From: Pseudomonas phage BRkr
Reading direction: 5' to 3' (one strand)
Length of the DNA: 64,000 nucleotides
Sequence record: LC765218.1
Shown: positions 16,234 through 17,768 of the stretch, in pieces
Position numbering within the stretch: position 1 is the first letter of the stretch
Layout: each line of letters opens with the position of its first letter
Position numbers and translations under genes: made by a program
Notes under the pieces: model-generated
Seen by the model: only the letters and a program-made list of their open reading frames with translations
Database searches by the model: none
What the model was told of the DNA's origin: nothing

Positions 16234-17768
16234 ATGCTACCGATACTCAAGGCTGAGCGCTATACGCATGGTGTCCGACTATCTGGGTATACTCGGGAAA
16301 CGTTCGCTAAGATGCAGGGGTTTCTTGAAGGGCTTTCTTTGAAAGAACCTAAGAAAATCCCTGGTAATCGAATCATCATGGAACTCAAGAAAAAGTACTA
16401 TGGTTGTTTCGAAGATCTATCAGAGACTTATATCCACCGAAATTCACTAGAAGACCTGATCGGTTATCTGGAGAACAAAGGTATCCCAAGAGAACGAGTC
16501 GAGATTGAGGATATCCCTGTCCCTAAAGCAGCAACTGCTGTTTACGAAATGTACGAGAAATACGTACTCCGGGATTATCAGGAAATCATCCGTGAAGATA
16601 TTTTGCGTGATTGGTTACATTCTGCACGGGTAGACTTGCAAACGGGAAAGGGAAAACCCTCACGAGCCTAGCGTCCTTGGCTTCGATGGGGGTAAGATGT
16701 GTTGTGATGGTTCCTCCCAAGTATTTTGGTATTTGGATTGAGGCTCTTCAGAACACTTACAAGGACATTGCCCAGAGATACATTACCATCTCGGGTTCCG
16801 CAGAACTCCAAAAACTAATAGATCGCGGCGTCGAAAACGATCTTGAAGGGATTGACGTTATTGTAATCTCTTCTACTACCTACCGGGCATATCTAGATAA
16901 CTTTGAGAAGTATGGTAACCGACTCCATGAGCTCGGATACAATGTACCTCCACCCCGGTTCCACGAAGCAATACAAGCAGGACTGCAAATTAACGACGAG
17001 ATTCAAGAAGATCCAGGACTAACCTTCCGTATCGATATTTACTCTAACATTAATAAGCAGATCTATTTGTCGGCTACTCCCTACACAGGGAACGCCTACG
17101 TGACGAAGATGATTGACAAGATGTTGCCAGCAGAGACCATGTGTCGCCTGCCCAACTACGATGTCTACATCAACTGCATGGGGCTACTCTACACTGAACC
17201 AAAGATCAAACCGAAGGATTATCTTACACCGTTTAAGAATACGTATAACCATGCGCGTTACGAAACGGTAATGATGAAAGATCCTAAACGGATGGATGAC
17301 TATTTCAGGATGGTCGGTCGTATTGCTGAGGGCGTGTATGTGAAAGATCGGTTACCTGGTCAGAAACTACTCCTCCTTTGTGCAACGGTCGCCTTTATTG
17401 AAAAACTGGTTAAATATCTGAAGACTAAGTTCCCTGACCTTGTGGTTAACGGACATGTCTCAGGTTGCAGTTATGAACAGTTACTTAAGAACGACATTAC
17501 GGTGTCCACTATTAAGTCATCTGGTACAGGTGTAGACATCCCTAATCTTCGTGAGGTAGTATTGTTACAAGCTACCGATTCCAAGAAAGATAACATTCAA
17601 ATTCTGGGTCGTCTCCGTAAACTGAAAGACTTCCAAGATGTGGTACCTAGGTTGACCTACCTAGTGTGTGAAAACATACCGCACCACGTGAGATATGCTC
17701 GGAATAAAAGTGAGCATTTCGCCGGTAAAACTCTTTCAATGGTACTCAGACGGATAGCCATGCACTAA
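16234..17768 (+). CDS. SF2 (DEAD/DEAH-like) helicase, reading frame interrupted by a 1-nt frameshift at ~16644-16659 inside the Walker A motif
   Basis: Two overlapping ORFs, 16234-16671 and 16611-17768, fuse into one helicase. Motifs: LRDYQ (Q-motif), VDLQTGKGK|TLTSLA (Walker A, GKGKT restored by a -1 shift), DEIQ (motif II), LSATP (III), SSGTGVDIP (V), QILGRLRK (VI). The shift site is the heptamer G_GGA_AAG next to an A4 run. Confidence 0.7.

Follow-up and report, generated by a model that had tools for sequence, protein, structure and literature searches.

The best-known programmed frameshifts of double-stranded DNA phages lie in structural genes, namely those of the tail chaperones and a few capsid genes. 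The tail chaperone G/GT frameshift of lambda uses the slippery heptamer G_GGA_AAG. This heptamer is highly shift-prone in E. coli and also serves as the g-t frameshift site in archaeal viruses (PMC5009743). The G/GT site of lambda-like phages belongs to a structural-assembly gene and is kept in nearly every long-tailed phage; most of its output is the short zero-frame product, the trans-frame product being the minor one. In E. coli dnaX (tau/gamma), a −1 shift occurs within a P-loop ATPase gene of the replication machinery, at an X_XXA_AAG heptamer followed after about 6 nt by a stem-loop (PMC5009743), and two products are made in a fixed ratio. In the IS3 family (OrfA/OrfAB), a short N-terminal protein is read in the zero frame, and a −1 shift at a heptamer ending in A_AAG, with a downstream structure, fuses the catalytic part to it; the short product, OrfA, acts as a regulator. 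Finally, "corrective" or "savior indel" frameshifting, in which a genomic indel is compensated at translation, is a recognised class (PMC5009743).

In the present study, we analysed a helicase gene in the window, by which we mean the whole stretch of 64,000 nucleotides of Pseudomonas phage BRkr (sequence record LC765218.1), where the reading frame is broken within the codons of the Walker A motif. We consider it very likely (probability about 0.85) that the gene is expressed through canonical programmed −1 ribosomal frameshifting within the Walker A coding region; the slippage itself is inferred, as there are no protein, ribosome-profiling or reporter data. No prior description of this helicase frameshift was found in the literature searched, which left out most subscription journals, and its novelty remains unproven.

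Two reading frames encode one XPB-like helicase

The coding parts of the locus, and the element that follows them, are these:

16234..16671, + strand: zero-frame ORF, 145 aa, ending ...VDLQTGKGKPSRA-stop
16611-17768, + strand: second ORF, frame 3, 385 aa, containing ...NGKGKTLTSLA...
16650..17768, + strand: −1 frame continuation, GGG AAA ACC... = GKTLTSLA..., 372 codons plus stop
16669..16671, + strand: zero-frame stop TAG, six codons past the slippery heptamer and within the hairpin loop described below
17773..17792, + strand: GC-rich hairpin AGCCCACC-TTCG-GGTGGGCT, then TTTAT, read directly from the sequence

When 16234-16650 is joined to the −1 frame from 16650 to 17768, the result is a trans-frame helicase of 511 aa, colinear with its 510-511-aa orthologs and 85% identical to PhiPA3 gp068. 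Its motifs follow in the order LRDYQ (Q), GKGKT (I), NDEIQ (II), LSATP (III), TIKSSGTGVD (V) and QILGRLRK (VI), the −1 continuation completing Walker A and bearing motifs II, III, V and VI; with this order and two RecA-like domains, the repaired protein meets the criterion for an SF2 helicase/translocase of the XPB-like kind. The AlphaFold model of the PhiPA3 ortholog (pLDDT 91.7) has two alpha/beta domains following an N-terminal domain, and in Foldseek its best folds were XPB/Ssl2 chains (E about 1e-14, probability 1.0). A profile search of PDB sequences gave a weak match to archaeal XPB-II, and PHROG 16, "DNA helicase", matched the repaired protein of the window at E = 2e-43. The repaired protein did not reach the Pfam gathering thresholds (ResIII, 19.6 vs 22.5 bits; Helicase_C, 17.0 vs 23.5; DEAD, 14.1 vs 26), and the label XPB-like therefore refers to fold and motifs and not to certified membership of these families; several orthologs bear a precomputed PF04851 hit. 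The two ORFs are the halves of one XPB-like SF2 helicase of the phiKZ gp075 / PhiPA3 gp068 family. The earlier note, which had joined the ORFs 16234-16671 and 16611-17768 into one helicase, was right in its coordinates and motifs, and the ortholog alignment agreed; it had held that orthologs consisting of two separate genes would refute the fusion, and the orthologs are single fused genes.

The gene is the Chimalliviridae core gene cg17 (phiKZ gp075 / PhiPA3 gp068 / RAY gp250; core-gene table in the supplement of PMC10299810), the criteria of orthology and of position both being met: an RNA polymerase beta-like gene (657-659 aa) lies directly upstream of the helicase in the window and in related loci. 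In PHIKZ075, transposon insertions are depleted about 10-fold, two insertions being tolerated; partial knock-down of phiKZ gp075 is also tolerated, with plaque counts unchanged, so that a reduced level of the helicase could suffice. The hairpin at 17773..17792 looks like a terminator and, as inferred from sequence alone, may close the helicase transcription unit. As a separate observation, the helicase gene adjoins phage RNA polymerase subunit genes.

By ortholog alignment and the AlphaFold model of the PhiPA3 ortholog, the 145-aa product would consist of the N-terminal alpha/beta domain, the Q motif LRDYQ, strand beta-1, an incomplete P-loop (GKGK) and the out-of-frame tail PSRA. The tryptic peptide TLTSLASLASMGVR is specific to the −1 frame.

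A slippery heptamer in the Walker A codons

The elements of the putative frameshift site are as follows:

16644..16650, + strand: slippery heptamer G_GGA_AAG, within codons ACG GGA AAG and phased to the zero frame
16650..16656, + strand: second heptamer G_GGA_AAA, overlapping the first and, among the frameshifted lineages, confined to the window's clade
16651..16655, + strand: spacer of 5-6 nt between heptamer and stem-loop
16656..16693, + strand: stem-loop, candidate frameshift stimulator, 13 bp plus a 2-bp apical helix, with two single-base bulges

The frame-1 codons at 16642-16659 read ACG GGA AAG GGA AAA CCC, with an A4 run at 16653-16656. Against the intact orthologs of HPP-Temi (511 aa) and PhiPA3 (gp068, 510 aa), the window is exactly one nucleotide short within ACN GGN AAR, and slipping by −1 at either heptamer restores QTGKGKTLTSLA, exactly the sequence of the orthologs. 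The heptamer, the A4 run and the GKGKT gained by a −1 shift had each been pointed out before our analysis, and every one of these elements held. The second heptamer is likely to be incidental, because no spacer separates it from the hairpin; a slip there would give the same protein.

G_GGA_AAG stands in the same phase in all eight frameshifted lineages and is absent from all 12 intact orthologs with available DNA, which have non-slippery codons at this place, mostly ACA GGT AAR. Within stop-free stretches of 150 codons or more, 72 kb in all, only one further in-frame copy was found, at 23045, six codons ahead of a stop, where slipping alters almost nothing. We also looked for an upstream stimulator of the Shine-Dalgarno kind, but duplex energies with the 3' end of 16S rRNA failed to separate frameshifted from intact genes.

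The same frame break in other isolates and lineages

Five other separately submitted isolates (phiHQ, HHBS36_1, PS119XW, PA1C and phiLBG22) carry the same frame break, the origin being known for two of them (phiHQ, Pakistan; HHBS36_1, Germany). They are at least 99.8% identical to the window and differ from it by 15-17 SNPs per 4.8 kb, and the window is therefore a distinct isolate. In PA1C, PS119XW, phiHQ and HHBS36_1 the gene is annotated as two "hypothetical" or "helicase" fragments.

Seven more divergent metagenomic lineages with the same site (L016, L017/L018, L021, L028, L029, L030 and L031) came to light in protein searches that used the N-terminal fragment and its profile. At 41-78% identity, these keep an invariant ACG GGA AAG G in the corresponding codons; the flanks of the heptamer vary at sites silent in the −1 frame, and the zero-frame tails are unrelated between lineages (PSRA, ERP, EKLSPV, GRPFRP, ESPSAR and others). 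Pattern scans added no further lineage: only two chance matches came from IMG/VR, the JGI metagenomes returned the contig of L021 and one chance match, and no frameshifted lineage was found in GTDB genomes. In total, only about 8 of the roughly 130 lineages sampled had the site.

A downstream hairpin and selection on the gene

A stimulatory structure had been suggested beforehand for 16660-16720, and a stem-loop is indeed present at 16656-16693, 5-6 nt past G_GGA_AAG. Its free energy is −18.2 to −19.2 kcal/mol; when the peptide was recoded synonymously 1000 times, 999 of the recodings folded less stably. The hairpin lies 5-6 nt from the heptamer in six of the eight frameshifted lineages and 9 nt from it in a seventh, and stability exceeds the synonymous-recoding expectation in six of eight (p = 0.001, 0.002, 0.17, 0.006, 0.003, 0.024, 0.021 and 0.96; Fisher p = 3.4e-8). 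Applied to the 12 intact orthologs, this test gave no hairpin signal (p = 0.51), and the free energies of frameshifted and intact genes differed (Mann-Whitney p = 0.005). The stem-loop is thus specific to the frameshifted lineages, though L017 has only a weak one (−12.9 kcal/mol, p = 0.17) and L031 has the heptamer without a hairpin, and synonymous sites are under selection for it.

Compensatory pair changes were seen, such as C-G / A-U / U-A at one position. The RNAalifold consensus is weak (−9.2 kcal/mol, 3 compensatory pairs) and column-wise covariation modest, because the register of the 3' arm shifts by 1-2 nt between lineages; we therefore rest the evidence on per-sequence synonymous-recoding nulls and not on the consensus. 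The wider fold, 16600-16720, showed no significant global structure (z = +0.36), the signal being that of the local hairpin only.

Downstream of the shift, the −1 frame is under purifying selection. The repaired genes of all eight lineages translate without further interruption (that of L030 runs off the contig end), and in the four lineages checked (window, L016, L017 and L021) 97-98 of 98 near-invariant residues are kept, 84 of these 98 lying downstream of the shift. The dN/dS between the window and Temi is 0.04, and amino-acid changes are less numerous on frameshifted branches than on the intact sister branches (2-3 vs 7, and 10 vs 27). Within the window's own clade, the gene has 3 synonymous and 3 non-synonymous SNPs, too few to show constraint after the shift.

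Proposed mechanism

The locus meets the sequence criteria of a −1 frameshift site: a phased heptamer, a downstream structure, and a conserved −1 ORF with the site found only in those relatives that need it. In the scenario we propose, ribosomes would start at 16234 and arrive at G_GGA_AAG with tRNA-Gly on GGA and tRNA-Lys on AAG, where the stem-loop would hinder translocation. Some of them would slip one base 5', the tRNAs re-pairing on GGG AAA, and would read on through GGG AAA ACC CTC..., completing GKGKT and producing the full 511-aa helicase; those that do not slip would terminate six codons on and release the 145-aa N-terminal protein. The site would thereby set a fixed ratio of two products and cap the helicase level; our guess for the slippage efficiency ranges from a few percent to some tens of percent. 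The 145-aa product could possibly be a regulator, a function inferred only from the analogous IS3 OrfA or dnaX gamma.

Alternative explanations

The earlier note had left three options standing, namely an indel in the record, an inactivating mutation, and programmed frameshifting or transcriptional slippage; our evidence favours the third in its ribosomal form, the transcriptional half being the weaker. Its possible error, an A5 read as A4, would make the true genome one base longer and the gene intact. For this speak the position of the break within short homopolymer runs and the other single-base differences of the PA1C record in T-runs and hairpin loops. The reading failed all the same and is practically excluded: the identical break occurs in the window and five separately deposited genomes and again in seven unrelated metagenome assemblies, and it always goes with codons (ACG, GGA) that no intact gene has, and in most cases with the hairpin, linked features that no base-calling error could create. 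Inactivation, by which the helicase would be a pseudogene in this phage lineage, dispensable or replaced by another helicase, could draw on the interrupted Walker A and the two genes called by annotators, on the 3 : 3 SNP ratio within the clade, and on the tolerance of phiKZ gp075 to transposon insertion and knock-down. Against it, both halves are intact with no second lesion in any of the eight lineages or isolates, nearly all near-invariant residues are retained in the four lineages checked, amino-acid change is not elevated on frameshifted branches, only genes with a broken frame conserve the heptamer and hairpin, and the helicase is a core gene across the family; we hold it to be very unlikely. 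We also think very little of transcriptional slippage, in which the phage or host RNA polymerase would add one nucleotide in the G3/A3/A4 runs and bring a fraction of the mRNAs into frame. The site is made of short homopolymer runs, and how phage-encoded multisubunit RNA polymerases slip is unknown. Productive transcriptional slippage, however, needs roughly 7 or more identical bases, and the runs here have just 3-4 nt; moreover, a conserved codon-phased X_XXY_YYZ with a hairpin at 5-6 nt is a ribosomal signature. Highly improbable, too, is a split helicase, in which the 145-aa protein and a separately initiated C-terminal protein would form an active enzyme without recoding. The ORF 16611-17768 does open at a TTG and, farther along the same frame, encodes an intact GKGKT, and annotators start the second gene at ATG 16686. 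Yet no Shine-Dalgarno-like sequence could be read ahead of TTG 16611 in the window, the ATG starts of gene callers (MGVRC..., MVPPKYF...) are residues conserved in the intact orthologs as well and lie past the P-loop, so that the resulting fragments lack Walker A, and the conservation of heptamer and hairpin is left unexplained.

We cannot rule out the possibility that the frameshifting is corrective rather than regulatory. In this explanation, one base is lost again and again at a mutational hot spot, the short G/A runs beside an intein homing site, and the loss is tolerated only since the result is slippery, the hairpin evolving secondarily and raising the yield; the mechanism is that of the programmed reading, but the 145-aa product is functionless and the state brings no benefit. 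In its favour, the frameshifted lineages are scattered, some being as much as 97% and 92% identical in amino acids to an intact sister; 39 of 122 homologs have an intein two codons downstream, between GKGK and T, and the site has therefore been repeatedly cut and repaired; and the hairpin-less heptamer of L031 is what a young event would show. On the other side stand the identical 10-nt sequence in eight lineages with no alternative lesion, the absence among database hits of any helicase split at another position, and the selection on the hairpin. The cassettes (heptamer to hairpin) are also mutually as diverged as the rest of the gene (63-82% identity vs 64-72% in the flanks), which implies long persistence and is awkward for a deleterious state that inserting a single base could undo.

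The history of the cassette is less clear. In the tree, frameshifted lineages are scattered among intact ones, so that repeated gain, loss or recombination is required. Cassette identity is 0.71 among frameshifted lineages vs 0.61 between frameshifted and intact ones, the flanks standing at about 0.67 for all pairs, and in two frameshifted/intact sister pairs the gene-wide maximum of divergence falls exactly at the heptamer-to-hairpin segment; such data do not separate recombination, convergence and repeated reversion. We also considered that the frameshift allele might confer immunity to intein invasion, an idea weakened by L030 and L031, which have frameshift and intein together. A bolder reading, which we regard as unlikely, would make the Walker A codons a switch point at which the gene has flipped between fused and recoded states several times, always at the same codon, driven by repeated cutting and repair by intein homing endonucleases at the boundary two codons downstream, with the 145-aa product and a capped dose as the selected regulatory output and the cassette spreading by short-tract recombination between co-infecting jumbo phages.

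Significance and comparison with known systems

If programmed frameshifting, the reading we prefer, is correct, the recoded gene would here be that of a core enzyme in nucleus-forming jumbo phages, with the shift site within its catalytic P-loop; without recoding, no active ATPase is possible from the frame-broken gene. The annotation of the deposited genomes is corrected from two fragments to one gene, and the Walker A codons appear as a hot spot both of intein invasion and of translational recoding, the latter inferred. Sisters with and without the cassette (e.g., PS119XW vs HPP-Temi) also offer a natural experiment that could reveal what dose control of this XPB-like translocase brings about, and the cassette is small enough for frameshift efficiency to be tested directly in Pseudomonas during jumbo-phage infection.

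With lambda-like G/GT and the archaeal g-t site (PMC5009743), the helicase site shares the heptamer, the −1 direction and the setting in a dsDNA phage, and a predominance of the short product is proposed here likewise, frameshifting at this locus being inferred. It is unlike G/GT in lying in the catalytic P-loop of an enzyme, in being restricted to about 8 of roughly 130 lineages and in having a sizeable hairpin. In dnaX it has a counterpart for the −1 shift within a P-loop ATPase gene and for the heptamer and stem-loop arrangement, as well as, by inference, for the fixed ratio of two products. The outcome is reversed, however: the zero frame of dnaX gives the full-length protein and the shift the truncated one. 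Moreover, dnaX shifts after its ATPase domain whereas the helicase site is within Walker A, and the upstream Shine-Dalgarno stimulator of dnaX was not found at the helicase site. The proposed logic runs in the same direction as that of the IS3 family, where a short zero-frame protein is likewise extended by the catalytic part and the site has the same A_AAG ending and a downstream structure, but the IS3 transposase belongs to a mobile element and the helicase is a core viral enzyme. As to the protein, the nearest known counterparts are the SF2 translocases XPB/Ssl2 (TFIIH), archaeal XPB and T4 UvsW; the fold agrees best with XPB/Ssl2, at a sequence identity of only 10-15%. Like the savior-indel cases (HSV thymidine kinase G-run mutants; mitochondrial +1 inserts), the helicase has a genomic indel that would be compensated at translation, and closely related genomes without the indel exist (PMC5009743); those cases, however, generally have no dedicated stimulator or are +1, whereas the helicase keeps its heptamer-spacer-hairpin cassette across deep divergence.

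Results

The helicase and its reading frames

An earlier note, made from sequence alone, had described two ORFs with helicase motifs, the zero-frame codons ACG GGA AAG GGA AAA CCC at 16642-16659 and a G_GGA_AAG heptamer. The window reads exactly so, and the complete arrangement is as follows.

Features of the helicase site in the window
16234-16671, + strand: zero-frame ORF, 145 aa, C-terminal end ...VDLQTGKGKPSRA-stop
16611-17768, + strand: -1-frame ORF, 385 aa, including ...NGKGKTLTSLA..., then motifs II (NDEIQ), III (SAT), V and VI
16644-16650, + strand: heptamer G_GGA_AAG, phased with the zero-frame ORF
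16650-16656, + strand: second heptamer, G_GGA_AAA, overlapping the first
16656-16693, + strand: stem-loop after a 5-6 nt spacer, -18.2 to -19.2 kcal/mol
16656/16657 (K141/T142 codon boundary): equivalent of the intein insertion point of homologs, which splits Walker A into GKGK and T

Alignment with intact orthologs showed that exactly one base is absent from the window within ACN GGN AAR, and a -1 slip at either heptamer would yield QTGKGKTLTSLA, the same as in the orthologs. The claim that the two ORFs make up one helicase also held, the gene being a single ORF in HPP-Temi (511 aa) and PhiPA3 (510 aa), annotated there as DNA helicase or RAD2/SF2 helicase. Across the window's long stop-free stretches G_GGA_AAG is found in frame just once more, at 23045-23051, six codons ahead of the stop codon of ORF 22185-23069, whose end overlaps the beginning of ORF 23056-24399. 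A -1 slip there would terminate after two codons, and this copy is therefore probably harmless.

By DNA search the window grouped with Pseudomonas aeruginosa jumbo phages, five of which (PS119XW, PA1C, phiHQ, phiLBG22 and HHBS36_1) share at least 99.8% identity with it, while HPP-Temi and PhiPA3 share 89% and 78%, respectively. Every near-identical isolate that has annotation shows two genes for the helicase. Single-base indels at window positions 16228, 17781 and 19394-19400 set the PA1C record apart from all other isolates. They fall in a T-run just upstream of the helicase start codon and in terminator-like hairpin loops; they shift the annotated start, the N-terminal ORF being called from farther upstream, and are possibly errors in that record.

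The helicase belongs to the phiKZ gp075 / PhiPA3 gp068 / RAY gp250 family, which is Chimalliviridae core gene cg17 (supplement, PMC10299810). Pfam helicase families matched only below their curated cut-offs; PHROG 16 'DNA helicase' matched with E = 2e-43. In the AlphaFold model of the PhiPA3 ortholog (pLDDT 91.7), an N-terminal alpha/beta domain precedes two RecA-like domains, and the top structural matches are XPB/Ssl2 of TFIIH, archaeal XPB and T4 UvsW. In all loci examined the gene lies directly 3' of a phage RNA polymerase beta-subunit gene (window 14204-16177); given this neighbour and the XPB/Ssl2-like fold, a transcription-linked translocase role seems worth testing. That the gene matters in phiKZ rests on the insertion index of PHIKZ075, 0.0015 versus 0.01-0.04 in dispensable neighbours (supplement 2, PMC12676376), and on an antisense knock-down, which lowered ChmA accumulation and left plaque counts unchanged (PMC12571901), so that a reduced helicase dose may suffice. 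GC-rich hairpins with T-rich tracts flank the gene on both sides (16194-16216 and 17773-17796), and it therefore resembles a separate transcription unit; upstream of the start codon at 16234 stands TTAATTTTTT, without a Shine-Dalgarno sequence.

The same heptamer in divergent lineages

A search with the repaired protein (the two ORFs joined across the shift) retrieved C-terminal fragments in other lineages, and a search with the N-terminal fragment, followed by a profile search, retrieved short N-terminal ORFs stopping just past LQTGK; the contigs of these ORFs were fetched and their junctions read directly.

Zero-frame junctions and downstream hairpins of the seven metagenomic frameshifted lineages
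L016: CAA ACG GGA AAG GAA AGA CCC TAA; hairpin 5-6 nt past the heptamer, -19.5 kcal/mol
L017 / L018: CAA ACG GGA AAG GAA AAA CTC ... TAG; hairpin (L017) 5-6 nt past, -12.9 kcal/mol
L021: CAG ACG GGA AAG GGA AGA CCC ... TAG; hairpin 5-6 nt past, -18.1 kcal/mol
L028: CAA ACG GGA AAG GAA AGT CCC ... TAG; hairpin 5-6 nt past, -23.3 kcal/mol
L029: CAA ACG GGA AAG GAA AGA GCC TGA; hairpin 5-6 nt past, -16.6 kcal/mol
L030: CAA ACG GGA AAG GAA AGG CCC ... TGA; hairpin 9 nt past, -17.2 kcal/mol, made of intein-coding sequence
L031: CAG ACG GGA AAG GAA AAT CCC TGA; no hairpin downstream of the heptamer

Although the proteins of these lineages are just 41-78% identical to that of the window, the 10 bases ACGGGAAAGG are invariant among the frameshifted lineages. 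In every one the -1 frame reads on as G-K-(T/S/A)-L..., the zero-frame tails bear no mutual resemblance, and none of the eight repaired genes is interrupted again (that of L030 runs off its contig end). All helicase splits found break at this single heptamer. By contrast, G_GGA_AAG occurs in 0/12 distinct intact orthologs with available DNA, all of which are non-slippery at this position, mostly reading ACA GGT AAR.

Two database oddities emerged. In protein P0129 (L029, 892-1326) the zero-frame TGA past the heptamer is rendered as W; table 11 does not give this protein from the locus, and an alternative genetic code was apparently used for the gene call. Three partial proteins (P0125-P0127), which share about 60% identity with the N-terminus of the helicase, come from 259-377-nt contigs labelled Klebsiella pneumoniae, probably jumbo-phage DNA within those assemblies.

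A candidate for the downstream stimulatory structure that the earlier note had proposed looking for is present in the window, namely the stem-loop at 16656-16693. Compensatory changes occur between lineages at paired positions (e.g., C-G, A-U and U-A at one position). The 3' arm shifts register by 1-2 nt between lineages and the strict column consensus is weak, so each sequence was compared with 1000 synonymous recodings that encode the same peptide and follow the gene's own codon usage. The eight frameshifted lineages gave p = 0.001, 0.002, 0.17, 0.006, 0.003, 0.024, 0.021 and 0.96 (Fisher combined p = 3.4e-8), in contrast to no signal in the 12 intact orthologs (combined p = 0.51), whose free energies were also weaker (Mann-Whitney p = 0.005). 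In both sister pairs (window/HPP-Temi and L021/L024) the gene-wide peak of nucleotide divergence is exactly the heptamer-to-hairpin segment, hereafter the cassette.

Selection and the intein site

Among 98 positions at least 97% conserved in 118 other homologs, 84 of them downstream of the shift, the window, L016 and L021 keep all 98 and L017 keeps 97, these being the four lineages checked. The window branch carries 2-3 amino-acid changes versus 7 for HPP-Temi, with equal synonymous changes (dN/dS 0.04 between the two), and the L021 branch 10 versus 27 for its sister; in these two pairs, no excess of amino-acid change was seen on the frameshifted branches.

An intein, mostly with a LAGLIDADG homing-endonuclease domain, is present in 39/122 homologs (e.g., P0013, P0030, P0035 and P0097, and locus L027), inserted two codons past the heptamer position; many start with a non-Cys residue (A, G, S, L, D, M or F). 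Two lineages, L030 (heptamer 765-771) and L031 (heptamer 2405-2411), carry both elements, the intein again starting two codons past the heptamer, which speaks against the frameshift allele being simply an immunity allele. Since two unusual genetic elements lie within about 15 nt, one might conceive of the site as a 'switch point'; this bolder reading rests on an unexplained coincidence, and we regard it as speculative and unlikely.

Discussion

We consider canonical -1 programmed ribosomal frameshifting very likely here (about 0.85), as the earlier note had offered among its options. The sequence anatomy and the selection signatures are shown, and the anatomy has every hallmark of such a site: an X_XXY_YYZ heptamer in phase with the zero-frame ORF is followed, after a spacer of 5-6 nt, by a stem-loop; the -1 ORF is conserved and overlaps the zero-frame one; and the cassette occurs solely in genes with a broken frame. 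That ribosomes do slip, the frequency of slipping and any part played by the short product are inferences. Non-shifting ribosomes would make the 145-aa N-terminal protein and shifting ones the 511-aa helicase; the shift lies inside Walker A, so that no active ATPase could arise without it.

Other explanations fare less well, including the remaining options of the earlier note. A sequencing or assembly indel is all but excluded: six separately submitted genomes (origin stated for two, Pakistan and Germany) share the break without any difference over 16560-16730, and the window, with 15-17 SNPs per 4.8 kb against each near-identical record, is a further, distinct isolate. An inactivating mutation, leaving a pseudogene, is very improbable given the recurrence of the heptamer in divergent lineages, the otherwise uninterrupted repaired genes, the near-complete retention of conserved residues and the lack of surplus amino-acid change. 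Transcriptional slippage would restore the frame in the mRNA and is disfavoured, the runs being merely 3-4 nt and the conserved feature codon-phased. Nor is a split enzyme of two polypeptides likely: the candidate internal start TTG 16611 has no ribosome-binding site, other candidates sit past the P-loop, and the conservation of heptamer and hairpin would stay unexplained.

As to origin, a neighbour-joining tree of 122 homologs disperses the first four frameshifted lineages among intact and intein-bearing branches, and their sisters are up to 97% identical; the other four were placed by best BLAST hit alone. The scatter implies that the cassette was repeatedly gained or lost, or moved by recombination. 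Its identity is 0.71 among frameshifted lineages versus 0.61 between frameshifted and intact ones, with equal flank identity (~0.67), which may reflect shared constraint or exchange. A corrective reading is less likely but not excluded; in it a deletion would recur at a mutational hot spot, slippage would rescue the gene, and a hairpin would later make the rescue more effective. Separately, the window and HPP-Temi barely differ over the first ~270 nt of the gene (16234-16500; 0-1 mismatch per 30 nt), and divergence then leaps to about 12%, suggesting a recombination breakpoint within the gene.

We found no earlier description of this helicase site in the full-text literature searched. What is new is the gene affected, the placement within a catalytic motif, the patchy occurrence across lineages and the adjoining intein site. 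The frameshifting mechanism is of a known kind: G_GGA_AAG has been called highly shift-prone in E. coli, and it is likewise the shift site of the archaeal-virus g-t (PMC5009743). The same heptamer is also the lambda G/GT site.
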